From positions 64,001 through 128,000 of IMG/VR virus record IMGVR_UViG_3300035499_000517: a DNA stretch of 64,000 nucleotides; one strand, 5' to 3'. This DNA comes from a virus. Lineage: Duplodnaviria; Caudoviricetes. The notes below the pieces were generated by a model. It made no database searches. It saw only the letters and a list, made by a program, of their open reading frames with translations, and was not told the origin of the DNA. Made by a program: the position numbers and the translations under genes. Shown here piece after piece: positions 35,017 through 62,100 of the stretch. Within the stretch, counting starts at the first letter, position 1, and each line of letters starts with the position of its first letter.

Positions 35017-37980
35017 ATGGGATTTGAAGAATTGAAGTTCTTGAATACCAAATGGAAGGAGGAACCGCTCAATTATTTAACATATATTAATTCGATTGAA
35101 AACTCCGGAACGAAGAGTTATATTATGCAGGAGGGAAACGAAGATGCTTGGAGAGAGTTGATTTCAAAGTCAACGATGTTCTGGGCAAATGAAGGAATAC
35201 GAGATGCTGTTTATGAAAGGCTTACAGAAGATGACGCGCTGTATGTTATGAAGAATCACAAACATCTCGGAAAAGCATTGAATGGATTCGCTGGAAAGAC
35301 GGTATTCTCAACTGGGAATTTCGATAATATCTGTGAATATATGAATATGGATGCAATTCATACAATGCCAGATAAGATTCTGAAGGGATTTGGGAATTAT
35401 GTCGGAGAGAAAATGACTGGAGACGATTCTCTTACATGGATAAGAGATCGTTTCAATGTTGATTTAACGGACTTTAAGGATTTGAACGAAGCGATAGAAA
35501 GCGATGACGCTTGGAAACTCATGGTTATGTCGAGTCCGATGATGAGTTCAGTTTGCTGTTCTGACTGGTTCGTAAATACCGTAATAGAGAAAGCTGGAAT
35601 GACAATATACCGTGATTCCAGTGGAAATTATTATGATGAAGAAGGCAATCATTATTTAGCATCAACTGGAGAGAAAGATGGAAATACAATAAGCACGGAA
35701 ATGCTCGAATCTATGCTTTCCGCCGGTCTTCTTGTAAAAGGGGTTTTGCAGAGAAATGAGAAAATTCAAGAAAAATTCGATGACGCAATGGAATATCTGT
35801 GTCAAAAGAATGCTTTGACTATCATCGAAGAAAATGATAATCTGATAACTGTTGCACTGGAAAGTGATACTTGTTGTGAGTATTTGAGAGATAATCCAGA
35901 TGATCTCCAGTATTTATTGGAGACAAATAAGTTCACTGAGCAGTTATTTAAATCTGAACACGCTCTTACAACGCTTTCCGGAAATCAGGATGCATTAAAG
36001 GTCATTGTAAACTTTATCGGTGATATTCAGGAGTCTTATGATACCTTAAGTGAACTTACAACAGAATTAGAGAAGATTCATAGTTATGGAGATAAAATTT
36101 ATAATTATGAACCACTGAAGTACAGTGTACAAAATACATTGACCACATTAAAGAATCAAGCAGAAGCATTGGATTCTGTTCAGGAATATAGCACGTTTGT
36201 GCAGACGATGTTTAATGGGTTATGGGAGAATGATGACTTTTTCGAAGTCTTATTTAATAATGAAAAACTTGTAATAGCAATGGTGGATGATGAAAGATGT
36301 ATGGTACAAATACTGACAAGAGAAACCGTTGGTGAAACATTAGCGAGTAACAGAAGGATGTACCCAATTGCATTAACAAGTGAAGCATTTGTAAATGGAA
36401 TGCTTACAAACGATAAGTATTTCGAGAAGGTGTTTATTTCGGATCGGTACCGGATGGGAGATATTTATGATAGTGAAACGGCATTAAGTGTTATAGGGGA
36501 AAGTGAAGAATACACAAGAAGATTTTTAAATGCTGCAATGGGATATAATGACAATGAGTATTCAGATTTAAAAACGAATATCTCAAATTCAGAATGGGCA
36601 GCAAGTATTGCAGCAGATGAATTCTTGGTGAAGTTCTCTAGTGATTCGAATGCTTATCTGGAATATTTAGTAGATAGTGTCGTGGGAATGAATGCACTTT
36701 TATCGAATACCTATCGAAGTTATTTTGATACCGAACGGGCATATGCAAAAATTCGTGAGCACGGTGGTGTTGCAATGTGTAAATGGGCATTGCAAAAAAC
36801 GAATGACATATGGAATTATAGTTATGATATTACGAAGTATTTATCTTTTGATTATTTAAAATATGGATATGATGTGAGTACTTCAAAATACACTGCAACT
36901 GATGGTTGCTCATATTCGGCATTGCTTAGAAATTGTATTCTTGCAAATCCTGATGTAATGTGTGATATGTTTATAAAAGATGATTCTACATATCTTATCA
37001 AGCAATTATTTAATGGTGGTAATAATTATAGTCCTTCAACAGTACCCTTCGTAAGTCAAGTAAATGATTCATTGATTCTTTATCCATTTGAAACTATAAA
37101 GGATAGATGTATGGAGAACTCGTATTTTCTTGGAAATTTTTTAAAATTTTTTACAAAATTTTATACCACCAGAGTATACGGAAGTAACACCAGCTCAACT
37201 ATTACAATAGATCTTCGATCTGCTACAGATTATCAGCCAACAAATACAGATATAAAAGATTATAATTCAGATGATTTCAAGCATTTTAATAATTTGATGA
37301 GTGCATATAAAGATAGCTATGTAAAATCTTCTACTCAATTAAAAGATTGGATATACAATTCCTCTATTTTCATTATCCCATATATGATTTATCTTTTTAG
37401 AGGTACTAATTTTCATGTTCATGATGGAGATATTGAAGGATTTTTTAATGATTCTGTATGTATTAACGGCTGTATCAATGTTGAAAATATTTGTCAAATG
37501 CTCTGTGCATCTACAAAATTGATGACATATGCAGCAAATAATAAAGATGCACTCATGGTTTTATATAATCAAGCATCTGCTATTGAAACTGCTTTCGCTT
37601 CAACTGCAAATAAAGATTATATGAATTGCCAGACTTTATCATACAATGCATTTTTAAATTCACCATATCTTGTAGTACATACTTTTTATGATAAATCGTC
37701 TAATCAAAAATATCTTTTAAGTACAGCTGGTGAAGTTACAGTTTATGATGGTCCGGCACTTATACTTTCTATCACATTTGGAACTGATTCTAGTACGCTG
37801 GTTGGACAATTTACAACATTAACAACAACTACAAAGACAAAAACTTACAGTGCAACAACAGAGAAGATACTTTTATTTGTTGATAAGTTGACATTACAGA
37901 ATAAAGGGTCTGGAACAGTTGAATCAATCACATATATCCCACTTGGTGATCAACCAGAAAGTACAGTTCTGAATACTTGA
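35017..37980 (+). CDS. Large hypothetical protein, possibly tail-fibre/receptor-binding related
   Basis: 987 aa; degenerate short helical repeats; AT-richer, Thr-rich C-terminal region; SD GGAGAGG. Confidence 0.65.
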   Translation: MGFEELKFLNTKWKEEPLNYLTYINSIENSGTKSYIMQEGNEDAWRELISKSTMFWANEGIRDAVYERLTEDDALYVMKNHKHLGKALNGFAGKTVFSTGNFDNICEYMNMDAIHTMPDKILKGFGNYVGEKMTGDDSLTWIRDRFNVDLTDFKDLNEAIESDDAWKLMVMSSPMMSSVCCSDWFVNTVIEKAGMTIYRDSSGNYYDEEGNHYLASTGEKDGNTISTEMLESMLSAGLLVKGVLQRNEKIQEKFDDAMEYLCQKNALTIIEENDNLITVALESDTCCEYLRDNPDDLQYLLETNKFTEQLFKSEHALTTLSGNQDALKVIVNFIGDIQESYDTLSELTTELEKIHSYGDKIYNYEPLKYSVQNTLTTLKNQAEALDSVQEYSTFVQTMFNGLWENDDFFEVLFNNEKLVIAMVDDERCMVQILTRETVGETLASNRRMYPIALTSEAFVNGMLTNDKYFEKVFISDRYRMGDIYDSETALSVIGESEEYTRRFLNAAMGYNDNEYSDLKTNISNSEWAASIAADEFLVKFSSDSNAYLEYLVDSVVGMNALLSNTYRSYFDTERAYAKIREHGGVAMCKWALQKTNDIWNYSYDITKYLSFDYLKYGYDVSTSKYTATDGCSYSALLRNCILANPDVMCDMFIKDDSTYLIKQLFNGGNNYSPSTVPFVSQVNDSLILYPFETIKDRCMENSYFLGNFLKFFTKFYTTRVYGSNTSSTITIDLRSATDYQPTNTDIKDYNSDDFKHFNNLMSAYKDSYVKSSTQLKDWIYNSSIFIIPYMIYLFRGTNFHVHDGDIEGFFNDSVCINGCINVENICQMLCASTKLMTYAANNKDALMVLYNQASAIETAFASTANKDYMNCQTLSYNAFLNSPYLVVHTFYDKSSNQKYLLSTAGEVTVYDGPALILSITFGTDSSTLVGQFTTLTTTTKTKTYSATTEKILLFVDKLTLQNKGSGTVESITYIPLGDQPESTVLNT

Positions 37981-45214: not shown

Positions 45215-45264
45215 ATTTAGGTATATGAGATAAACGTGTACCAAACGAGAAAGGAGAAAGAGAC

Positions 45265-46377
45265 ATGATAAAAAGAAAACTTTTTAGCTCACCAGGTCTG
45301 TTTGAAGAAATGACAAAACCTGATGACAAGTACCGACCTTCCACTATCATAAAAATCCGATTGGACGATACACCCATTATGGAGAGTAAAGATGTTGATG
45401 CTAGTGATAGTGATGAGTATAAAAATCTTATAAAGCGAGCAGCATTGCTTCGGCTACTCTCTATCAGTAGGTCTGTCACAATGGCAGTGCTTGAAAAGTA
45501 TGCAATTATTGAGATGGATATCCATAATAGCGAGTTGGTTAAAGATTATGCTACAGCTGCTGAAAAGAGATCTGTACTTCATTGCATTCAGGAATCGTCT
45601 AATGGGAATATCCTAGTGCAATTCTTCCAGCATAAATATGAAGGAGATGATTTAGTAACTCGATTTATCGGGCATGACAAACCAAAGATTTTCTTTAAAA
45701 ATAAGACATTGAAGTTTAGTGAGGTTTTAGATTATGATGTAACTGGATACTTCTTCCCATTTAAGAATCCAAATCATAGAGGATTGACAGTGTATGATGA
45801 GTTTGGAATCCAGAATCCATTCACAAATAAGAAAAAGGAAGATACTTATGAAGGTGATGATGACTTGATTATGCTTTTGCCTTTTGCAATGCAATTTATT
45901 CATGACTATCGCAGATGTAGATTCAGCCCTATATCACAGATGAATTACGTGCATATTTGTTATATTGACATTGAAAGGTCTTTGTATGCATTGATCAAAG
46001 ATAAGTGTCAGCAGGAGGCATATTATGAAGTAGCAGGAATGAATTTTCCAAAATATTGTGATCCTTATGATGAAAACCCAAGTCCTCGCAATCTTACACC
46101 ACATCAAGAATGTATAAACCTCATGAATATCGTGAACGAAACACCAGAAGTTTTAACGATATACTTCAATCGTGTAGCTGATCTTATTCAAAAGGTGAAG
46201 TCTGGAGATAGATATTTACCATATCCTCTTAAGGATGTTAATCCTGCAGAACTTATGGAGGATTTGAGTGATCTCTTTAATAAATATTTCCCAGAATCCA
46301 TGGTAATTTGGGAAGTTGCAGCAACTATTGCAGATAGAGTTTCAAAAGAAAAGAATTGGAAAGGAGACAACGAATGA
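45265..46377 (+). CDS. Hypothetical protein, paralog A1
   Basis: KRAALLRLLS, FSEVLDYDVTGYFFPFKN, DYRR shared with next gene. Confidence 0.8.
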   Translation: MIKRKLFSSPGLFEEMTKPDDKYRPSTIIKIRLDDTPIMESKDVDASDSDEYKNLIKRAALLRLLSISRSVTMAVLEKYAIIEMDIHNSELVKDYATAAEKRSVLHCIQESSNGNILVQFFQHKYEGDDLVTRFIGHDKPKIFFKNKTLKFSEVLDYDVTGYFFPFKNPNHRGLTVYDEFGIQNPFTNKKKEDTYEGDDDLIMLLPFAMQFIHDYRRCRFSPISQMNYVHICYIDIERSLYALIKDKCQQEAYYEVAGMNFPKYCDPYDENPSPRNLTPHQECINLMNIVNETPEVLTIYFNRVADLIQKVKSGDRYLPYPLKDVNPAELMEDLSDLFNKYFPESMVIWEVAATIADRVSKEKNWKGDNE

Positions 46378-47405
46378 AAGACACAAGAAAAGAGTACGTG
46401 CTAATCTTTGCAAGATTATGTACAAAAACACCAGCTAGAACAGGGAATCCACTTCTTGCAACAATTGAGAATATCTCAGTGGAAGATGAAGATGAGCACA
46501 TGATGCTAGTAAAGAGGGCAGCATTTCTTCGGTTATTATCAGTAAGCAGCGATGTATCAATTATTGCAGATACAGACAATGCTGTTTTCATGTTTGATAG
46601 AAATGACTGGAAGGTATCGGATACTAGAGGGGAATATTCACCTCTTACAAATTCCGTTCAGTTTTCATCCATGCTTGAGTTTATTACCTCTGGTATAAAT
46701 GCTAATTATAAGATTAACGCAACTTTAAGTGACTTTGAGGAAGCGAAAGCAAAAATCGGTGGAGATACCATTACCGAATTTGAACACCGGGATTTACAGT
46801 TTTCAGAAGTTATCGATTCTGATGTTACGGGATTTATTTATCCATTTAAGAACAACACGCACAGGAGCCTTGCAATATACAAGGAATTCAATCTCCATGT
46901 ATCACACGTATATCCAAGATTTTCTAAGAAGCATCCGGCTGGCTATGAAGTTTCAGCAGAGTGTGCTCTGGCATTTATGATTGATTACAGGAGAATGACG
47001 AATGATGATATCACAAATCGATTTTATTGTGAGAAGTTAAAGGTATATGCTATTCTCTATGGTATTTTTGATGATTGCTCAGATTTATTTGAATTTGAAG
47101 GACCGAGATCACTCTGGAATTCAGAAGAGGAGAAAGCAGAGTCAATCCTTTCAATCAAGAAGGATTATCTGGAGTTCATGGGATTCGTATCAGAGGAACC
47201 GATTATATTATATGATTTCTTCAATCGTCTGAAAAAGGTCATGGATAACTATGAAAAATTTGGAAGATCAGTGGTTCCGGAGAATGTAAAAGCCAACATG
47301 GATCTCATCGTTCGTTTCTTCCGCACTGTTTTTAATGATTCCATGAGCATTCAGGAGATCATTACAAAGGCAGAGAATCACATTCCGAGGAGTCACATCA
47401 ATTAA
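46374..47405 (+). CDS. Hypothetical protein, paralog A2
   Basis: KRAAFLRLLS, FSEVIDSDVTGFIYPFKN, DYRR; ATGA overlap. Confidence 0.8.
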   Translation: MKDTRKEYVLIFARLCTKTPARTGNPLLATIENISVEDEDEHMMLVKRAAFLRLLSVSSDVSIIADTDNAVFMFDRNDWKVSDTRGEYSPLTNSVQFSSMLEFITSGINANYKINATLSDFEEAKAKIGGDTITEFEHRDLQFSEVIDSDVTGFIYPFKNNTHRSLAIYKEFNLHVSHVYPRFSKKHPAGYEVSAECALAFMIDYRRMTNDDITNRFYCEKLKVYAILYGIFDDCSDLFEFEGPRSLWNSEEEKAESILSIKKDYLEFMGFVSEEPIILYDFFNRLKKVMDNYEKFGRSVVPENVKANMDLIVRFFRTVFNDSMSIQEIITKAENHIPRSHIN

Positions 47406-47422
47406 TAAAAGGAGGGATTTTT

Positions 47423-48265
47423 ATGTCAAATGAAACCAATGAAGCAGGAGATATAAAGTGTTTTAATGTAGAAAGTCTCTTGCATGTAAAACGAATCCGA
47501 TACATATCGGAATCAGATGTTCCTTGTAGAAAAGGAACGAAATCAGTAGTAGATGCTTTCAAGAACGACGATTACACAAGTACTTGGTGCATCGTGGAGT
47601 ACGATGATTATAATCAGATGCAGATTGTACTGGTTACCGATTGTCGAGAAAGGGACCTGATTTCTTTATTGAATTTTAAGGTAAAGAATGTAGTCGGTGG
47701 TGAATCCCGTTACATCGTGATTCCAGAAGGTGGATATCATTTCAATTATGAGGAAATGGTTGCTTATGAAATAAAGGAAAACGAAGCCTCTGATATGTCA
47801 AATAGAAAGTATGATGCCTATATCGGGAAAGATCGTAGTGGTTATGAAATGATCGATAAGATTGACTATGATAAGCTTTCCATGGAGGAATCTATTATCG
47901 CATATTACACAACCGATAAACAGGTTACGTTTGATGGAAATGCAGCCGATGCATATAAATTGGCAGAGAGTGTCGAAGATGAAAGGAGGCTTGCAAAACG
48001 CGTCGTTGATAGCTGGAATCATTTAATCTGCGTAGCTGCACATGATGGAAAACGTGCTGTTAGAGTTTTAAATGGTTCAAGGGATTTACCATCTGACTTT
48101 GTCGTAGAATACTTCACGAAGAAAGGATATGATGTAATTGCTGAATTTACACATCCTTACGGTGAAGAGAGTTTACGAGAGGGATGGGTTGTTACAGTTT
48201 CCTGGGAGAGAGGAAAACATCGCGATGGTGTTTTCACAAAGATTGGGATGAAGGAGGCACTATGA
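47423..48265 (+). CDS. Hypothetical protein, family B (C-terminal GYD...W domain)
   Basis: VVEYFTKKGYDV...VTVSWE; SD AAGGAGG. Confidence 0.78.
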   Translation: MSNETNEAGDIKCFNVESLLHVKRIRYISESDVPCRKGTKSVVDAFKNDDYTSTWCIVEYDDYNQMQIVLVTDCRERDLISLLNFKVKNVVGGESRYIVIPEGGYHFNYEEMVAYEIKENEASDMSNRKYDAYIGKDRSGYEMIDKIDYDKLSMEESIIAYYTTDKQVTFDGNAADAYKLAESVEDERRLAKRVVDSWNHLICVAAHDGKRAVRVLNGSRDLPSDFVVEYFTKKGYDVIAEFTHPYGEESLREGWVVTVSWERGKHRDGVFTKIGMKEAL

Positions 48266-49068
48266 GTGATACGAAAATTGGGAAATTTCACCCAAAGAGT
48301 TTCAAGAATGTAGAGCGAATCATCTTTACAGCCGAGTCTCATATTTACATGGATAAAGAATCTATCTTTGTATTAGAACCAGCTTGTTTAGGTGAGTGGA
48401 TGTTGTCAGAATATATCGAGAATGAAAATACGATGGTTAATCTGGATGTAACATATTCACCGACTTCGGATTTGGAAGCCTTATCAGATATGCTAAATAA
48501 AATATTGAAAGAAGATCCGGAGAAAGAATATGATTATGTGATCGAACTGGAAAGTGCTGCAGATTCTATAAACATGGTCTTTGATCGTGAATGGATGGAA
48601 TGCAGATTCCGCTGTGATGTACGTATGGAGGCCTATCATTACCCATGTTCATTTATGGTTCCTGAGTCTTTCTATAAGAAGGTCTATACGACAATGCTGG
48701 AATCAATCTATCTGAAGTTATTGGGTGATAAAGGTGGAGTGAAAGGAGCTGTAAAACCTATTCCACCAGTAAAAGAATCTAACCAGATTGCTCATGAAAT
48801 GCGTAAAGGTAGATCAGGGCTTAATCTAAAATTGATGAATCAGATGATCAATGCAATTGAGGACGCAAGAGATGCAGGATTTTATACAATCGGGATTATA
48901 CTGGCGTATAATCCTGGTGTAAATTCAAGGTCTACATTGAATTATTTCGTGAAGGCTGGTTATGATATCATGATAAACATACATGAGAAGAATTATAAGC
49001 TGATAATCTCTTGGGAAGATGGAGAGAGAAAAGTCGGCAGATATTATGACAATACAGGAGGGCTTTAG
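48262..49068 (+). CDS. Hypothetical protein, family B
   Basis: TLNYFVKAGYDI...LIISWE; ATG 48262 after AAGGAGG. Confidence 0.78.
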   Translation: MSDTKIGKFHPKSFKNVERIIFTAESHIYMDKESIFVLEPACLGEWMLSEYIENENTMVNLDVTYSPTSDLEALSDMLNKILKEDPEKEYDYVIELESAADSINMVFDREWMECRFRCDVRMEAYHYPCSFMVPESFYKKVYTTMLESIYLKLLGDKGGVKGAVKPIPPVKESNQIAHEMRKGRSGLNLKLMNQMINAIEDARDAGFYTIGIILAYNPGVNSRSTLNYFVKAGYDIMINIHEKNYKLIISWEDGERKVGRYYDNTGGL

Positions 49069-49071
49069 AAT

Positions 49072-50058
49072 ATGGCAAAAGAAAAAGTTGAAAGACTGAC
49101 TGTTGAAAATTATTACTTTCAATCAAATATTCCATTCACAAAGTTTGAACTGAGCAGTTTAGCAAATGTGATATACATGGAATTTCGGCATAGTAGTAAA
49201 TTTGTATTGGGGAGAGAAACTGTATGGGTTGCAACACATACCGATGTTCGGAAAATCCATAAGATTTTAGAGTCTGGAGAAGATATGAAGATGCCTAAAG
49301 GAACCAATCTAGCTGATAAATACGAAGACAAGAGTCATTGGTTTATTGCAGAATATGATTTTAAACAGCATTATTATATTGCAATTGATGAATATGCACT
49401 CACCGATGATGAATTCCTGGAGTTGTTAAATCTTGATCTTGTGGAGCATTATACTGCAGTAACCGATAGTGATTATATCTATGATTATTCATCAAAGTTA
49501 GCTATTTCACGAACGATAGCTACAAAGAATCAACAAGTCGTTTCGCGTCAAATGATGGAGAAACACCATAATCAGATTGCTAAGGTCAATCTTTGGGGAA
49601 TATTCAATATAACGGAATCCACCTACAAAGAAAAAGTATTTAACAATTCTGAACGGTGGATGGATTCAATGAATTTCGATGCAGTTATCTGTAGAAAGCT
49701 TAGCATGGGCTTTCTTGAGGAGAAGTCCATGGAATCTATGTTTGGAACCATGAAGAACTCTGAAATCAAGATGATTCGTAAATGGAGAAAGAAGGTCCTC
49801 AATGCAGTCATTAAAGGAAGAGGTAGTTGCAAGTTTAAAGAAACCAATGGTGAAAAGATCACTATTGCTGTGTTAAACCCTTTCCTCGATAATGGTTTTA
49901 GCATCATGCTTATAAAGAGCACACCTCTCAAATACTACGTTCACATCTTATGGAATGATCAAAAGAAGAAAGGTGATAAATTACATGGAAAGTTCGTATA
50001 CGTAGATAATGAATCAAATGCGGAAAAATCTAATGTGGAAGGAGAAGACAAAAAATGA
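49072..50058 (+). CDS. Hypothetical protein, family B
   Basis: VLNPFLDNGFSI...VHILWN. Confidence 0.75.
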   Translation: MAKEKVERLTVENYYFQSNIPFTKFELSSLANVIYMEFRHSSKFVLGRETVWVATHTDVRKIHKILESGEDMKMPKGTNLADKYEDKSHWFIAEYDFKQHYYIAIDEYALTDDEFLELLNLDLVEHYTAVTDSDYIYDYSSKLAISRTIATKNQQVVSRQMMEKHHNQIAKVNLWGIFNITESTYKEKVFNNSERWMDSMNFDAVICRKLSMGFLEEKSMESMFGTMKNSEIKMIRKWRKKVLNAVIKGRGSCKFKETNGEKITIAVLNPFLDNGFSIMLIKSTPLKYYVHILWNDQKKKGDKLHGKFVYVDNESNAEKSNVEGEDKK

Positions 50059-50570
50059 TATTCGACAAGAAATATTTAACTGTAGCTTGTAATGTTACAC
50101 TGGAAGGTCTGATCAAACAATTATCAGACCTTCCTTGTGTTGATGCAATCATTCATGTAAATGGGAATGATCTATTTTCTATAACACTTCCCGATCACAT
50201 CAGTAATCGTGAACTTAAAATCATTTCTAGCAATGAGGTTAAAGGTGACTATTTGACATGGAATGTAAAGAATGTAAATCTGTGGAATTTTGTTGATCAT
50301 TTAAGCTTGTTTGGAGGTTTTAAAGATGCAAGAATCAAGCTGAATGGAAAATCAATTTTCTACATTCATGTTGCAATGGATAGGTCTATTGTAGAAATCA
50401 GTGATAACCCACTTGAATATGATTATCCTAATGATGATATCCACATTCAGATCAATGGTTCTATCATGTCAACAAAAGAAAGGTCAATTATTGAGTTCTC
50501 TGATAAGAGGTCTTATAAATTAGAGTCTCAGGATGGTTGTGTTTCAGCTGATAATGGAGAACCTGTTTAA
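50055..50570 (+). CDS. Hypothetical protein with internally duplicated module shared with next gene
   Basis: FDKKY...LSDLP...IHVNGNDLFSI and LSLF...IKLNGKSIFYIHV. Confidence 0.75.
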   Translation: MIFDKKYLTVACNVTLEGLIKQLSDLPCVDAIIHVNGNDLFSITLPDHISNRELKIISSNEVKGDYLTWNVKNVNLWNFVDHLSLFGGFKDARIKLNGKSIFYIHVAMDRSIVEISDNPLEYDYPNDDIHIQINGSIMSTKERSIIEFSDKRSYKLESQDGCVSADNGEPV

Positions 50571-50585
50571 AAGGAGGAAGTAAGT

Positions 50586-51158
50586 ATGTTTGATCCAAAG
50601 TATTTTGCAATGGTAACTGGAGCCACCGTAAAGGGGCTCCGCGATTATTTAGCATCTCTGCCGAATCAGAATGCAGAGATCAATGTCGAAGGAGACAATC
50701 TCTTTTACATCCATGTAGAAGAGGATGGATCTCTCGTCAATTTTGACGACAATATGATGCTCGAGCAGTATAAGGATGATGTAGACAACGCTCTCATAAA
50801 GCTTACTGGAGGAACCGGAGGGATAAATGCAAGGACAGCTCGTTTAGACGCAATCATATCAAAGAGGAGATTCTTCTGGAATATTATTGACACGAAGATT
50901 GATGCTGGTGAAACTGAATGTCAGATCGATTTTAATACAGTTAGTGCTATCGACATTGAGTTCCTGGAAGACCTGATACATTCTGGGTTTGATCTTTATA
51001 TCCCGAAAATAACAATGCTCAGTCAGCGGTGTCCGGTCATTGTTGATTGGTTTGAAGGGAAGCCCAAGGATGGTGAATTTGTTGATTTGAATGACAAGAT
51101 CTATCTTGAGAATGGGCATCTCGTAGTAAGAGAAGATGTAAACAAAGGAGTTGATTAG
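50586..51158 (+). CDS. Hypothetical protein, family B
   Basis: FDPKY...LASLP...INVEGDNLFYIHV N-module; FLEDLIHSGFDL...VIVDWF. Confidence 0.78.
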   Translation: MFDPKYFAMVTGATVKGLRDYLASLPNQNAEINVEGDNLFYIHVEEDGSLVNFDDNMMLEQYKDDVDNALIKLTGGTGGINARTARLDAIISKRRFFWNIIDTKIDAGETECQIDFNTVSAIDIEFLEDLIHSGFDLYIPKITMLSQRCPVIVDWFEGKPKDGEFVDLNDKIYLENGHLVVREDVNKGVD

Positions 51159-51163
51159 TAAAG

Positions 51164-52069
51164 ATGATTAGTGAACTTATTAAGGTAACTGCAAAAGATG
51201 CTGAAGAACTTGATAAAATAAAGACTGAACTTAAGAAAGCTACAAACAAGCTTTACGGAGAACAAAAGAAATCCGAAGATGTTTATAATCCTTGGTTCCG
51301 GAGTGAGGCTTTAATTAATGGAAGTATTCATGACGTTGTATTTTATGGAATGATATCAAAAGATGATCAATCTTTTGGTACATATTTCTTCCATTATGTG
51401 AAGCATAACACTTGGAGATTATTTCAATACCAACCGGAAATGCTTACACTGGTAAGAGATTTGGAGATGGAATTTGAGACAGATGGTTTGATTTCATTCC
51501 TTAGCAGTCGGTTTGATGCAGAGATCATTGCTGTTCATGACGTACTTTATATCATGAAAGGAATGGACTTAAACATGCTCGACTTATATAAGGAAAATAT
51601 CCGGAAAGTTGTCGAGGATTTGTATATTGAAGAGCTTGGTTCACTTTGTATACCTGCAGTGAAGAAATCAGAAGAGAACGAGCTCTCCGAGGATAATTCC
51701 TATAGAACATTTTGCATTAAATCTGCAGAAGAGATGTGTACTGCCTCTCGTGAAGCAAATCTTAGAGAGATTGAACTTGATAATCTGCGGAGAAAATGGA
51801 TGCATGAAATCGAGAATGTTGCAAGTAAAGGTCCTTGTGAAGTGGAAAGTATTGCCTTAAAGGATGAAATCACAGTACAGGTAATTCGGGAATTCCAGGA
51901 TCAGGGATATGATATTCATGTCTCACCGATTAAAAGAGCAACGATTCCGGGCACTCCGGAAGAAGTCCTTGTTGTTTTATCATGGATAAAGGGACTGAAA
52001 AAGGACGGAACTTTAATCATTATTAACAACTGTCTGGAGGACGTTGGTCTTTCTGCACCTACTTTATAA
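51164..52069 (+). CDS. Hypothetical protein, family B
   Basis: VIREFQDQGYDI...VVLSWI; followed by terminator ~52074-52103. Confidence 0.78.
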   Translation: MISELIKVTAKDAEELDKIKTELKKATNKLYGEQKKSEDVYNPWFRSEALINGSIHDVVFYGMISKDDQSFGTYFFHYVKHNTWRLFQYQPEMLTLVRDLEMEFETDGLISFLSSRFDAEIIAVHDVLYIMKGMDLNMLDLYKENIRKVVEDLYIEELGSLCIPAVKKSEENELSEDNSYRTFCIKSAEEMCTASREANLREIELDNLRRKWMHEIENVASKGPCEVESIALKDEITVQVIREFQDQGYDIHVSPIKRATIPGTPEEVLVVLSWIKGLKKDGTLIIINNCLEDVGLSAPTL

Positions 52070-52124
52070 GAATAAAAAGAAGGGAGTTAATCCCTTCTTT
52101 TTTATCCATTTAGATTTTCTTCAT

Positions 52125-52143
52125 TTTCATTTATATAATATTT
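52125..52143 (+). promoter_or_regulatory. Putative early promoter motif
   Basis: TTTCATTTATATAATATTT. Confidence 0.7.
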
Positions 52144-52241
52144 TGGTGATGTAAGAGAAGAAAAAGAATCTTATGTCAAGAAACTAAGGGCCAAAATTAC
52201 TATGGTCCGAAAATAAATTTATTCCAAAAGGAGGAAATATT

Positions 52242-53006
52242 ATGTTTAATGAGAGTCTTTTAAAACATGCGAAAGAGGTAGCGTTTATCGGCAAAGGTAT
52301 TATCAATGAGGGCAAGGAGGTCGTTTACGTACTGAGGAAGAGATCAGCTGGTGATACCTTCACGCTGATGGAGTATATTGGTGGTAAAGACATACTCGTA
52401 ATGCTCGAGTACAATATCACACCGGATCGCGGCGTCATCATCTTCGAGAACTTATCGGTTTCTGAAAGATACATCTACATGAAGGGTGAAACCATGAAGT
52501 TTGATCTTCCGTCTGAGGAAATCAAAGACAGAGTTTATATGGATTACAAACACATGATGTATGGTTTGAAAGGAATCAACCGGGTGCTTTCAAGAGACGA
52601 TTATGTTATCGAGTGCATCAACAATGCTGAGGATCCAGCGGTAGTAGATAACGAAGCCGATGACAAGGAAACGGTTACATTAGAGCTTCCGACTGCTGCA
52701 AAATCTTTCGAGGATGGTGGTGCACGTGAGATTGAGAATTACATCAAATATATCAACAAAGCCGTTGCTAATGGGAAACGTGAAACGTATTTAACGGATG
52801 GTACAAGTTGGCTTCCAAGAAGGGAGCACATTGAGTATCTTGTAAATGCTGGCTACGACATCAATGTTGAGAAAATCTCTGGCAACTATCACGTTGTTGC
52901 AAACTGGGACTCCGCAAAGGAATCCGGAGGCAAAATCATGTATTCAGTATTTGGTGGAGCTGATGAACCGAAAGAGGTGTCGTTAGACTTCTTCGAAAAG
53001 AAGTAA
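52242..53006 (+). CDS. Hypothetical protein, family B
   Basis: HIEYLVNAGYDI...VVANWD; SD AAGGAGG. Confidence 0.8.
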   Translation: MFNESLLKHAKEVAFIGKGIINEGKEVVYVLRKRSAGDTFTLMEYIGGKDILVMLEYNITPDRGVIIFENLSVSERYIYMKGETMKFDLPSEEIKDRVYMDYKHMMYGLKGINRVLSRDDYVIECINNAEDPAVVDNEADDKETVTLELPTAAKSFEDGGAREIENYIKYINKAVANGKRETYLTDGTSWLPRREHIEYLVNAGYDINVEKISGNYHVVANWDSAKESGGKIMYSVFGGADEPKEVSLDFFEKK

Positions 53007-57519: not shown

Positions 57520-58587
57520 ATGAGTGAATTGACAAAGAACGAGATGTTAGAAGCAATGGCAAAGATTCAGATGCGTTCGTATGGGACACATGGAATTTTC
57601 AATCGTTACACAACTCCAGAGATCATCAATAAGAACTGGGTTGAACAGATCTTTTTGGATGGTGAATTCCACTGTAATTACTGCTTTGCGTTTTTCCGGG
57701 AGTTAATAAAGAAGGATGCTGTCCTTCTTAACAAAAAGGGAAAGACCTTAGATGTAAAGGAGCGTATTTCACTGGATTACACAACAACCTGGAATGAGCT
57801 TGCCCAAGTAGTATCAGACATCATAGCTGCAACAAATGGCGATATCGTTGCAAGTATGACAGATTTAAAGAAAGCGTTACTGAAGGCATGTGTTGACTTT
57901 TACATGACAACACATTTTGTGATTCCGGCAGAGCTTGCTGAACATGGATACAACACGTTTACATCAGAAAACTTGTACGAGGATTGTCAGATTGAGTGTG
58001 TAGTTCCAGATATTTCTTTTGGTTATAAGCTTCATGGTTTGGATAACGTTGATACGGTGAAGTTACAAGAGATCACTGCTTCAAGTGGAGATATCGCAGC
58101 AAATATCACATCTGGTGATATTAATTTATGGAATGATGCAGCGCATAAGGTCGGTGTTATCATTAACTCATTGATGGACGCGTATGAATTTGTAATGGAC
58201 GATTTCCGGTTACGCATGTACAACTTCGTCGATTATCTATATCATAATGCAATGCTTGAAGATGATGATTATGAATACGGTGAAGCTCTACTATATTCTG
58301 TTAGTGAGATTGAGCGGATTCAGTATTCACCTATCATCCGGCTTCTTGAAGAGAACCCAAATCTCAGACGTGTAATGGAAGTAATGGCGGCTAGTTACGG
58401 GGATTATGTAAATCAAGTGTTCGCTGATAAACTTGCAGAAGCTATGTTTAGCATGTTTCAGATTGAACTTATGCGCGGTGGCGATACTGATAAGACGATC
58501 CCAGCTCTTTCTGAGAAAGTTCGGATTGAGCATTCAGTGAACTATACTCGTCCAGTTATCAAACACATGGGGAAACAGGATGATTAA
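57520..58587 (+). CDS. Hypothetical early protein
   Basis: 355 aa; SD AAGGAG. Confidence 0.8.
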   Translation: MSELTKNEMLEAMAKIQMRSYGTHGIFNRYTTPEIINKNWVEQIFLDGEFHCNYCFAFFRELIKKDAVLLNKKGKTLDVKERISLDYTTTWNELAQVVSDIIAATNGDIVASMTDLKKALLKACVDFYMTTHFVIPAELAEHGYNTFTSENLYEDCQIECVVPDISFGYKLHGLDNVDTVKLQEITASSGDIAANITSGDINLWNDAAHKVGVIINSLMDAYEFVMDDFRLRMYNFVDYLYHNAMLEDDDYEYGEALLYSVSEIERIQYSPIIRLLEENPNLRRVMEVMAASYGDYVNQVFADKLAEAMFSMFQIELMRGGDTDKTIPALSEKVRIEHSVNYTRPVIKHMGKQDD

Positions 58588-58602
58588 AAAAATCAACTTA
58601 AT

Positions 58603-58621
58603 TTTCATTTATATAATATCT
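58603..58621 (+). promoter_or_regulatory. Putative early promoter motif heading the DUF4116/array operon
   Basis: TTTCATTTATATAATATCT. Confidence 0.75.
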
Positions 58622-59116
58622 ATATAGATACATGAGAAAGGATATGTACTGAAAGGAGGGCATTTTGATATTCTCGTATCAACCACGTCCGGTTGTGGCT
58701 GAATTCTACATGAAATAATTCCATGTATTGTGGCTAGTATATGGATAGTTTTGTGAATGGATTCATTTGTTACTCGTGAACCTGATTGATAGTATTATAA
58801 TTACCTTGATTTTTATATACTTGATTTTGATGATTTGTGAATGTAAAAACAAAGTGTTTTGGCAATGGGCACTTTATGACAATCGTGACATTCTAAAGCG
58901 TGGCAGCAACGTCGTTAAAATGGTATATGAAAAGCATGAGAAATTTATAATAATATCAATTCAGAGACATTTAATTAAGGAGGTTTAAGATTTCCTCTCT
59001 AACCTTCTCGTATTCTTTTAGTTTAGATAAAATTTAAATGGTGAAGACTGGCCTATGTAATTGATCGGAAAATGGTTGGTCTTCACCATTTACTGTCACT
59101 TTAGGAGGAAAAAAAT

Positions 59117-60067
59117 ATGAGTTTATTTGAGACAGAGGCAGAAAGAGGTTGGCAATTAAGTTTTCGAATTAATAGTGAATTACTTAGTAAAATGGCACCA
59201 AGTGAACAGACTGAAGAAGTTTGTATCATGGCAGTAGAAAGAGATGCAGATAATTTAAAGTATGTAGTAGATCAAACAAGAACGGTTTGCTATGAAGCAA
59301 TTAGAAGAAACCCAGATACATTGCAGTATGTCTGGGATCAAACGGATGACATCTGCTTGCTTGCAGTTATGACAGATGGGTTGGTCCTTCGTTATGTACA
59401 AAATCAAACCGAAGAAATTTGTCTTGCTGCAGTGAAACAAAATCCGGAAGCAATCATCTATGTAAAATCTCAAACGTATCGTATCAAAGAAGCAGCGATA
59501 AAAAGAGATGGCATGATGCTTCGATATATAACCCTTCCAACGGAGTACTTCTATGAGCTGGCATTGAAGCAGAATCCGAATGCAATCATTTTCATCAAAG
59601 ATCCAACGGATGAACAAGTTGATTATGTATTAGAGCAGAATCCGGGATTAATCTCTGTTGTGGAGCAGACTGAAGAAAGGAGGTCAAAAGTTTTAGAGAA
59701 TTGCCCAGCATGTATTCAATATATTCATGAACCATCAACAAACGAATGCATTCATGTCGTTTCAACGGATGGGTTATGCTTACCAAATATCACACAGAAA
59801 TATCGGACAAAATCAATATACTTTTATGCTGTAAAAGAAAATCCAGAAGCATTGGATTATGTCGTAGCAGATCATCCAGACGACGATATCATTTTTACTT
59901 GTGGAGTAGAGGCTTGTGAAATCGGAGGACTGAAATATTTATTCCGTCTTAAGAATAACAAGTTTCGAGTATTCAGGGAGATAATGAGAAATCGTAGACA
60001 TCGTCTTTTTAGAAGGGTTGAAGATAAGGTCGATGATTTCTTCAATTGGTTTTTCGGACCTCGCTAA
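59117..60067 (+). CDS. DUF4116-like helical repeat protein
   Basis: About ten 22-aa repeats of type QTEEICLAAVKQNPEAIIYVK; SD AGGAGG. Confidence 0.82.
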   Translation: MSLFETEAERGWQLSFRINSELLSKMAPSEQTEEVCIMAVERDADNLKYVVDQTRTVCYEAIRRNPDTLQYVWDQTDDICLLAVMTDGLVLRYVQNQTEEICLAAVKQNPEAIIYVKSQTYRIKEAAIKRDGMMLRYITLPTEYFYELALKQNPNAIIFIKDPTDEQVDYVLEQNPGLISVVEQTEERRSKVLENCPACIQYIHEPSTNECIHVVSTDGLCLPNITQKYRTKSIYFYAVKENPEALDYVVADHPDDDIIFTCGVEACEIGGLKYLFRLKNNKFRVFREIMRNRRHRLFRRVEDKVDDFFNWFFGPR

Positions 60068-60617
60068 GGATAAGTTGAGTCTGTCGAGGTGATGTAGTGG
60101 TATAGACTGGTAATGCTTAGTGACGTGATGTTTTGTTGCGTGGCGTAATGGTATAGTGCATTGACGTAATGGTATAGTGAAGATGGTACAGTGCTGTGAT
60201 GTATTGGCGTAGTTGATCTATGTGGCGTGCAGTGAAGTATTGGTGTTGTTTAGTGAGGAATGCTCAGATATGCAATTGGTAGTCTGATGCTCAGTTCAGT
60301 GTTGCCAGGTGAAGTGTTGGTATCGTTTAGTGATGAGGGTTGTGCTCTGGAGAGGTATAGAAAAGTAGAGTTATCTTAAGTAATGGTGTAGTTTGGTGAC
60401 GCTAGTTTTGTAACGTAAAGGTAGGGTAGAGTAGAACACTGTTCTGTTCCGTGTCGGTGAAGTGAAGTTTCGTACTGTGGAGCAACGTTTCGCATAGGTA
60501 AGGTAAAGTATCTCATATTTGTGTTCAGCATAGGTGAAGTAAAGTGGTGAAAGGAATGTGTAGTATGGGTATTGTTTAGTGACGCAAATTGTCGATATGT
60601 TTTGTTTTGGCAGAGTA
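60068..60617 (+). repeat. Non-coding 5-nt-period xG(T/C)-NN array 1 (candidate guide-RNA array)
   Basis: GT every 5 nt with variable triplets between; GTAATGGT-like junctions at 60145, 60166, 60201, 60237, 60380, 60415, 60451, 60492, 60528, 60563, 60604; no ORF >=60 aa. Confidence 0.85.
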
Positions 60618-60674
60618 TTAAGAGATATCTAATTTTGGAGCTTATTGATTTTATTGTGAAGAAAGGAGTGTGAA

Positions 60675-60896
60675 ATGGAAGTAAAGATTACATCAGAAAA
60701 AGATATTGTATTTAACACCGAGGAATTACCAAAAGTCAAAGAAGAGCTAAATGAAATAGCAAATAAACTTGACGCTTTACAAGAACGTGATTTCTTCCAA
60801 GATAATGAAAATACCTTCATGAAAATCTTGGGAGATGCAATCACGTCCATTGATGATTTACTCGATGATATCGAAACCCTGGAATCTCAGATCTAA
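60675..60896 (+). CDS. Small acidic helical protein between the arrays
   Basis: SD AAGGAG; 73 aa; DAITSIDDLLDDIETLE. Confidence 0.75.
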   Translation: MEVKITSEKDIVFNTEELPKVKEELNEIANKLDALQERDFFQDNENTFMKILGDAITSIDDLLDDIETLESQI

Positions 60897-61713
60897 GCAA
60901 AGGTTTTCCATAGTGTAGTCCGCTTTTGTACTGGTATGGTCCAGTAAAGAGGGAAATGTGACGTTCAGTACGGGCGTGGTCACGTGAGGTACTGTATGGC
61001 TTTGTGCCGTAAAGGTGAGGTAAAGCAAGTCATTGTATAGTTAAGGAGATGTAAGGCTTGGAACAGTAGCGATTGGTTGGGTATCGTAATGGTATTGTCA
61101 GGTAGTGTGGTGGCATAGCCGAGTGGCGTAGTGTTTTGTGTTGATATGGTTATCTGGCGTGCTGTATGGTTGTGTGACGATTGTTGAGTATTTTAGAAAA
61201 TCTTTAGTTGGTGTTGTAATGATAACGCCAGACATCGGATGGTAAAGTTTCGTGATGGTATATTATAGTGGGGTCCTGCGTGGTATAGGAATAGCTTGGA
61301 ATAGTAGGGTTGGGTCTAGTAGAGTAACGGTGTGACTAGGATATGAACAGTGATGTATCGTTACGGAGAGGCTAGGTTAAGAACCGTGATGTACCAGAAT
61401 AGTTTAGTCTAGTAGAGCATGGTGTAGTTATGGTGCAGTTACGCTCCGAAATGTGAGGTAACGGTACAGTGAGGAAATGCTACGCATGGGTGTAGTGCTA
61501 TTACGTAGCGTATTGGTATAGTTGCATATAGATATGTGCTGTGATGGTATGGACCAGTGTCGTTAGTAAAGTATTGCAATGGTATATTGAGGAAGGGTTA
61601 AGTATAGGTAGGGTTACGAACAGTTAAGAATAGTTGTGGTGAGGACTGGTTAACCATAGTAACGAACCGGTTTGGTTGCGTGGGTTAAAGTATACTCAGG
61701 TAATGGTAAAGTA
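60897..61713 (+). repeat. Non-coding 5-nt-period xG(T/C)-NN array 2 (candidate guide-RNA array)
   Basis: Same grammar; junctions at 60897, 60928, 60968, 61009, 61086, 61458, 61484, 61510, 61541, 61576, 61602, 61633, 61700. Confidence 0.85.
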
Positions 61714-61768
61714 TTTTAAAATTTCTAATATTGGTGAAAGTAATTAAAGACACGAAAGGAAGTATTAA

Positions 61769-62050
61769 ATGGAAGAGAAATTAAGAAACAACACAAATTC
61801 CCTCTATGAAGTAACAGAGACGATAACTGGAGTGGATTCTCTGCTGAGTTATCTGAGGAGTATCTCAGACACAGAGACACTGAATGCAAGTACAAAGATT
61901 TCTCATTATACAGCAAATGCAATTACTGATCTTGAGAATTTGAAATCTGAGCTGGAGTCTCTTAGAAGATATAAGATTGTAGAGCGAAGGGAAGCAGCAA
62001 TCGGGATTTATCCATCAGATGCTCTTGCTAAAAGTTCTAACGTAGTGTGA
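61769..62050 (+). CDS. Small helical protein after array 2
   Basis: SD AAGGA; 93 aa; NAITDLENLKSELESLR. Confidence 0.72.
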   Translation: MEEKLRNNTNSLYEVTETITGVDSLLSYLRSISDTETLNASTKISHYTANAITDLENLKSELESLRRYKIVERREAAIGIYPSDALAKSSNVV

Positions 62051-62060
62051 ACGAGAAAAT

Positions 62061-62100
62061 AAGGAGAGGATGAACACAACCATTCATCCTCTCTTTTTTT
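62061..62100. terminator. Intrinsic terminator closing the array operon (probably bidirectional)
   Basis: GAGAGGATGAA/TTCATCCTCTC + T-run. Confidence 0.8.

Follow-up and report, generated by a model that had tools for sequence, protein, structure and literature searches.

Island-borne pentamer-repeat arrays of an AR9-like jumbo phage are probably staggered VIPR guide RNA genes

The arrays described here lie on an IMG/VR fragment of 114,823 bases that CheckV rates as ~47% complete. Coordinates refer to the window, the whole 64,000-nucleotide stretch of DNA that was analysed. Genes at 53-57.4 kb encode split RNA polymerase beta-type subunits, and the source of the contig is an AR9-like jumbo phage. 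The complete genome of a relative, G001 (255 kb), encodes an RNA polymerase subunit with 71% identity and is syntenic on both sides of the region from 57.5 to 62.05 kb. At the corresponding place, G001 has one unrelated 521-aa ORF, and neither a period-5 tract nor Vipr, the protein of the VIPR systems introduced below, was found in its genome. As this island is missing from a syntenic relative, the arrays are cargo of an accessory island, and the absence of island, arrays, and Vipr from G001 is the behaviour expected of an accessory conflict module. The island DNA had no match among 50,697 phage records. The array locus itself was present in seven metagenome assemblies (six in addition to the present one) with 0-1 differences, a near-identity that makes comparison within the lineage silent on which positions vary. 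The features of the island are as follows, in order.

57520..58587, plus strand: ORF of 355 aa, the first in the island; absent from G001
58602..58620, plus strand: promoter-like motif TTTCAYTTATATAWTATY, probable start of the array operon
59117..60067, plus strand: gene for a 316-aa DUF4116 repeat protein (Pfam PF13475, E 9.9e-19), directly upstream of array 1
60068..60612, plus strand: array 1, ~107 x-G-Y-n-n pentamers in ~18 segments, mostly of 5n+1 nt
60613..60645, plus strand: A/T-rich terminal element, copy 1
60675..60896, plus strand: acidic ORF of 73 aa between arrays; its ribosome-binding site is strong, and public assemblies call the ORF a gene
60897..61186, plus strand: array 2a, pentamer grammar as in array 1
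61187..61213, plus strand: A/T-rich terminal element, copy 2, at the division of 'array 2' into 2a and 2b
61214..61708, plus strand: array 2b, pentamer grammar as in array 1, units mostly 26-41 nt
61709..61736, plus strand: A/T-rich terminal element, copy 3
61769..62050, plus strand: 93-aa ORF, last gene of the island
62061..62096, both strands: terminator-like hairpin between the island and a convergent M48-like gene

The 355-aa protein matched no Pfam or PHROG family and is not a detectable RAMP. A single homologue cluster was recovered for it among 1.84 billion representatives, the homologue sitting on a 1.7-kb contig, and an IMG/VR search returned none. Its sequence is acidic by inspection, and its AF2 model is all-helical with low confidence (pLDDT 39.6; ESM Atlas model, pLDDT 0.34). 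Neither the 73-aa nor the 93-aa ORF matched a family. The idea that these two are a duplicated pair was discarded, as they share no BLASTP similarity. Two perfect 14-bp inverted arms separated by a 30-nt loop (59035-59092, plus strand) lie in the leader, immediately ahead of the start codon of the DUF4116 gene.

The motif TTTCAYTTATATAWTATY occurs seven times in the window (at 1169, 3365, 17537, 22737, 27689, 52124, and 58602), always on the plus strand, where 0.1 copies would be expected. It resembles the early promoter consensus of phage AR9, AAATATATATTAT-N6-G (PMC5312081), and by this sequence likeness is probably the early promoter of the present phage, used by the virion RNA polymerase. 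Between 57.4 and 62.2 kb, no terminator-like site was found other than the hairpin at 62061-62096. The arrays thus probably belong to an early operon that runs from the promoter motif at 58602 to the terminator at 62061, and a single early transcript of ~3.4 kb would cover it.

To characterize the arrays, we measured periodicity across 60068-60617, which the sequence-only reading had described as ~100 pentamers with GT recurring every 5 nt. The region contains 89 GT dinucleotides, and GT-GT pairs at lag 5 numbered 42 against 14.5 +/- 3.2 in 500 dinucleotide-preserving shuffles (z 8.5), with a second excess at lag 10 in the same test (z 5.1). The proposed lag-5 peak was therefore present. Single-base autocorrelation, which needs no register, gave the same period for G (z 9.5 in array 1 and 9.9 in array 2, 60897-61715) and for T (z 4.6 and 4.1, respectively), with weak signals for A and C. 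When the window and then all 114,823 bases of the contig were scanned in sliding steps, the period-5 signal was confined to ~60.0-60.65 and ~60.85-61.7 kb, on the plus strand only.

The composition of the tract was also as first described, G/T-rich and poor in C (G 178, T 188, A 133, C 51). Fitting the register x-G-Y-n-n placed ~107 pentamers in array 1 and ~260 in all tracts together. Read this way, G fills its own position at 0.90-0.91, and the Y position is T or C at 0.85-0.93, frequencies that arise partly by construction because the register was fitted on G and T. The remaining three positions have entropies of 1.7-2.0 bits, so that the contrast of constant and variable positions anticipated for the pentamers was recovered. 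The 15-nt exact repeat at 60144 and 60165 was likewise found. The tract had been said to contain no ORF. This holds for the plus strand of array 1, whereas the opposite strand has an ORF of 51 aa, the sole one there. Array 1 RNA was not predicted to be more folded than its shuffles (z -1.45), as expected of an extended guide, and an Rfam scan of the locus matched no family, hammerhead included.

Two regularities that the sequence-only reading had not mentioned divide the arrays into units. The first is that the pentamer register breaks in a defined manner, with 72-85% of the breaks being shifts of +1 nt. The pieces between breaks are mostly 5n+1 nt long (21, 26, 31, 36, 41, 46, 51 ... nt). There are ~45 such units in all, ranging from 21 to 66 nt and containing 4-13 repeats each, with a median length near 31 nt in the second tract and of 24 nt in array 1. 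The junctions share the logo ..G-T-A-W-T-G / G-T-A-T-A-G-T.., in which the slash marks the break. The second regularity is a conserved A/T-rich element of ~27 nt, AGTATT..A..A.WTCT....TTGG.G, which closes each tract. It is present in three copies (60613, 61187, and 61709), found only at array ends, and may act as a signal for processing or termination or as an internal promoter. As one copy is internal to what had appeared to be a single second array, 'array 2' is in fact two arrays, 2a and 2b. The resulting layout is an array, an element, and a small ORF, repeated three times with the middle ORF missing. The middle element, with no ORF behind it, looks as though its cassette had lost its gene.

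A tract of this kind could in principle not be a gene at all, and could represent a decayed pentanucleotide microsatellite or a structural or protein-binding tract that acts at the DNA level. The near-invariance of the sequence between samples (0-1 differences) would suit such an origin. On the other hand, Tandem Repeats Finder detected no repeat spanning the tracts and made just two very short, low-score calls in the tail of array 2, since three of the five positions are near-random. The strict strand asymmetry and the 5n+1 punctuation with its defined junction logo are unlike decay, and the same grammar is found beside Vipr genes in unrelated phages, as detailed below. We therefore give this explanation hardly any credence.

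The sequence-only reading proposed that the tract is a guide array like those of VIPR. Its account of VIPR was accurate, and preprints on these systems have appeared. VIPR is a CRISPR-like phage system first described in 2026 (bioRxiv 10.64898/2026.04.26.720920,.720927, and 10.64898/2026.10.15.759431). According to these preprints, the Vipr protein is a RAMP of ~20 kDa with an RRM core, a thumb, and a C-terminal G-loop, for which family kinship with Cas7 is claimed. Vipr polymerises on a vrRNA made of pentamer repeats and flips out the constant GGY, while the NN bases are presented and read double-stranded DNA, with one base skipped per unit. In the cryo-EM structure of the Vipr from phage SUSP1 (PDB 36pp), three G-loop residues contact the constant bases: D177 the first G, and W178 together with R179 the second G and the pyrimidine. 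The preprint bioRxiv 10.64898/2026.04.26.720920 defines a VIPR tract as at least four tandem pentanucleotide units with a constant G or GY and hypervariable positions, and names the alternative repeats NNNGG, YNNNG, and NNNNG for some systems. The legend to its fig. S18 describes 'staggered' vrRNA arrays, in which guides abut with a 1-nt offset and have no tails or spacers.

To determine whether the grammar of the window arrays occurs next to Vipr genes, we queried IMG/VR with the pattern (GTNNN)3-G-(GTNNN)3-GT. This yielded at least 119 loci, and 74 of the 119 listed carried period-5 arrays of at least 200 nt. A Vipr homologue was found within the locus for 42 of these 74, among the matches listed, and in the loci inspected the vipr gene lay directly beside the array. 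Clustering the ORFs of those loci gave Vipr families present in 32, 6, and 4 loci, all with proteins of ~190-270 aa. An HMM of type II Vipr, built from 120 homologues of the SUSP1 protein, matched members of all three clusters. For the largest cluster (comp 0), hhalign against type II Vipr gave a probability of 95.8% and an E value of 8e-9 over 183 columns. The properties of arrays beside Vipr homologues and of the window arrays compare as follows.

G at the x position: ~0.2 beside Vipr homologues; 0.14-0.26 in the window
Constant G: ~0.85 beside Vipr homologues; 0.90-0.91 in the window
T at the Y position: ~0.7 beside Vipr homologues; 0.72-0.79 in the window
A at n1: ~0.4 beside Vipr homologues; 0.38-0.47 in the window
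Share of +1 shifts: 0.8-1.0 beside Vipr homologues; 0.72-0.85 in the window
Median unit length: ~31 nt beside Vipr homologues; 24-31 nt in the window

The junction logo of the Vipr-adjacent arrays was also that of the window arrays. This match in grammar is the main ground on which we assign the window tracts as vrRNA arrays, and its recurrence beside Vipr homologues in dozens of IMG/VR contigs supports the earlier guide-array reading.

The largest cluster of Vipr proteins that adjoin such arrays retains a C-terminal G-loop in common with that of SUSP1 (GLGQWRNSGxGRF in the cluster and GVGDWRPRFGRF in SUSP1). Alignment A2 places G-L-G-Q-W-R of the array-adjacent Viprs against G-V-G-D-W-R of SUSP1. 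The glutamine in place of D177, as seen in these sequences, would fit the loss of the first G in the arrays of these proteins. Scans with the comp-0 Vipr across JGI metagenomes and IMG/VR gave at least 550 confirmed matches each, mostly from ~58-kb gut phages, and among the matches listed nothing came from samples holding the present phage. The Vipr family tied to xGYnn staggered arrays turns up very frequently in human gut and rumen metagenomes, on phage contigs of ~58 kb (L228-L307 and L148-L227).

Our data suggest, with good though not complete confidence, that the tracts at 60068-60612, 60897-61186, and 61214-61708 are VIPR vrRNA genes of the staggered-array type with a YNNNG (x-G-Y-n-n) repeat. 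As far as the fig. S18 legend tells, they correspond to the YNNNG repeat and the staggered array of the VIPR preprints. The earlier idea of a divergent GY-NNN version agrees with the YNNNG class as named by the VIPR authors. By the same token, the claim of a new variant falls, as that class had already been described by them.

A working model can be outlined. The early promoter at 58602 would drive one plus-strand transcript that comprises the DUF4116 gene, array 1, the 73-aa ORF, arrays 2a and 2b, the 93-aa ORF, and the hairpin. By analogy with solved type II complexes, Vipr protomers would bind this RNA, one per five nucleotides, holding the constant G and pyrimidine and exposing the variable bases. 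The +1-nt junction ..GTAWTG/GTAT.., which is evident in the grammar, would mark the end of one guide and the start of the next during processing, to give ~45 guides. Through gapped pairing, each guide could then recognise a rival mobile element by its double-stranded DNA and silence it.

Comparison with described systems places the arrays most closely to the staggered YNNNG type, as outlined in the methods and the fig. S18 legend of bioRxiv 10.64898/2026.04.26.720920. Both have a 5-nt repeat with a constant G and a pyrimidine, both form long tracts free of spacers and tails in which the end of a guide is the start of the next at a 1-nt offset, and both are borne by phages and flanked by small genes. 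Against that outline, the present arrays differ in that neither vipr nor a recognisable vap occurs over the 74 kb to one side or the 39 kb to the other, in sharing what appears to be an early operon with two small ORFs and a DUF4116 gene, and in ending with the conserved ~27-nt A/T-rich element.

The type II system of Escherichia phage SUSP1 (Vipr, PDB 36pp; vap1; four vrRNAs) has the pentamer code in common with the window arrays. Among the repeats of its vrRNAs there are likewise degenerate xGT units, and the repeat tract finishes with a +1 step (GGTATGGGTAG). However, they are separate genes of ~100 nt that flank vipr-vap1, each with 9-16 GGYNN repeats and a structured pseudoknot tail, whereas here the first G is free, a unit has 4-13 repeats, and individual guides lack a tail. 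Class 1 CRISPR arrays read with Cas7 are also short-guide arrays used by a RAMP filament, given the kinship claimed in the VIPR preprints. In contrast to these, the island has no repeat-spacer alternation and no cas genes, and its guide bases are interleaved with constant bases every 5 nt.

Having assigned the arrays, we searched the contig for a protein that could use them. Neither the SUSP1 Vipr nor SUSP1 vap1, the sole vap reference, gave a phmmer match on the 114.8-kb contig. The HMM of 120 type II Vipr homologues also found nothing there, nor did hhalign of each contig ORF against the type II alignment. HMMs of the IMG/VR clusters matched no contig ORF, whether of at least 60 aa or of at least 30 aa. 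A six-frame search of the contig with alignment A1 (45 sequences) returned no Vipr, while the same search found Vipr in two other jumbo genomes at E values of 3e-50 and 3e-76. The Pfam RAMP family PF03787 was not matched in the contig, and a regular expression for the G-loop and RPLR motif found nothing in any of its six frames. A Cas7-like RAMP gene had been anticipated in the genome. By every sequence method, none was detected in these 115 kb, which are ~47% of the genome.

Two candidates were considered and rejected. A Vipr-sized ORF of 195 aa at the window end proved to be part of a 461-aa gene that is conserved in the array-less G001. A 238-aa gene beside the arrays of G002 and L081 was judged by its GDxxD...GNND...HGH motifs to be a calcineurin-like phosphoesterase and not a Vipr. 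The island proteins were further compared with ~280 array or Vipr loci and had no homologue among them, which leaves no vap-like partner in view.

A distant jumbo relative shows that arrays can be well separated from vipr. G002, a 258-kb genome that is 96% complete and has several distant homologues in common with the present contig, carries vipr at 36299-37057, followed immediately by a small array. Further arrays amounting to ~1.2 kb lie at 58.7-61.4 kb on the other strand, ~22 kb from vipr, and have ..CGTAATGGTAT.. junctions as here. G002 and G003, the complete array-bearing jumbo genomes checked, both encode Vipr. The vipr of the present phage most likely resides in the unsequenced half of its genome. 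A search with a G001 protein from the region missing here recovered just a 7.4-kb fragment (74% identity). The distal array of G002 (L031, G002:56065-70131, reverse strand, ~1040-2270 of that stretch) is split by an insertion of ~1.3 kb, after which it resumes; by eye, the insertion holds a TnpB/IS605-type ORF.

We consider it unlikely that the phage lacks vipr altogether, with its ~45 early orphan guides either commandeering the Vipr of gut phages or prophages or using an unrecognised non-RAMP protein of the island. The former version supposes 'solo' arrays whose ~45 guides load onto the Vipr of a co-infecting phage or prophage and redirect or disarm that rival. There is precedent for guides of this sort: use of another element's Vipr has been shown for satellites and vipr-null SUSP1-like phages, and solo vrRNAs are documented in 346 vipr-null phages and in satellites (10.64898/2026.10.15.759431). 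The absence of Vipr from the 115 kb around the arrays agrees with it, as does the abundance of the matching Vipr family in ~58-kb gut phage contigs, largely from the virome collection of G001. Still, the contig is only ~47% of the genome, and both G002 and G003 encode Vipr, which in G002 is ~22 kb from some arrays. The solo cases in print carry 1-2 guides, not ~45. Although they too are guide genes without a nearby vipr, they are type II guides that derive from a defined vipr-vap1 deletion and have predicted targets, whereas the present guides come from an incomplete genome (10.64898/2026.10.15.759431). Nor did the guides here match four whole Vipr-bearing phage genomes or 1.5 Mb of Vipr-bearing loci in excess of shuffled guides. 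We judge this version by itself to be a little less probable again than the two taken as one.

In the latter version, the pentamer RNA serves the DUF4116 or the 355-aa protein in a separate system that only looks like VIPR. Both genes point the same way as the arrays and are probably transcribed together with them, and both proteins are without an assigned function. Yet the identical grammar elsewhere adjoins Vipr and never homologues of these proteins, and the acidic nature and all-helical prediction (low confidence) of the 355-aa protein also speak against it. This makes an island-encoded partner very improbable, and a vrRNA array read by Vipr the better supported account.

Assuming VIPR-type guides, we searched for their targets. 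The 29 units with at least five repeats were decoded under 11 rules, which took two or three variable bases and skipped 0-3. None of the 11 rules gave an excess of matches over shuffled guides in the contig itself or in G001. The outcome was the same when subsets of 4-5 rules were applied to 1.5 Mb of Vipr-bearing loci and to the complete genomes of four gut phages that encode Vipr. The gapped-target matches foreseen for the arrays thus did not rise above shuffled controls for self, G001, Vipr loci, or the four phages. The longest clean unit, which has 10 repeats and specifies 20 bases under the published rule, had 0 exact matches in IMG/VR and the genomes of 185,579 species (one each). Depletion of stop codons in the decoded triplets was not significant.

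As they stand, these results confirm published biology rather than extend it, as this kind of array was already known. They add an AR9-like jumbo phage with two RNA polymerases to the carriers of VIPR guide arrays, and show the arrays as cargo of a swappable island, probably expressed early. The unit grammar, with its 5n+1 lengths, junction logo, and array-end element, can be used for calling such arrays elsewhere. Should the complete genome contain no vipr, the island would be the first known case of orphan guides on a large scale, greatly exceeding the 1-2 solo guides published so far.

The same contig carries a further accessory region. Nine tandem paralogous ORFs of 171-382 aa occupy 45229-53003 on the plus strand, and the family is absent from G001. 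The two members scanned had no Pfam match. Seven of the nine share a C-terminal module, ..G(Y/F)D(I/V)..W..G..DG, and the region is an expanded accessory gene family.
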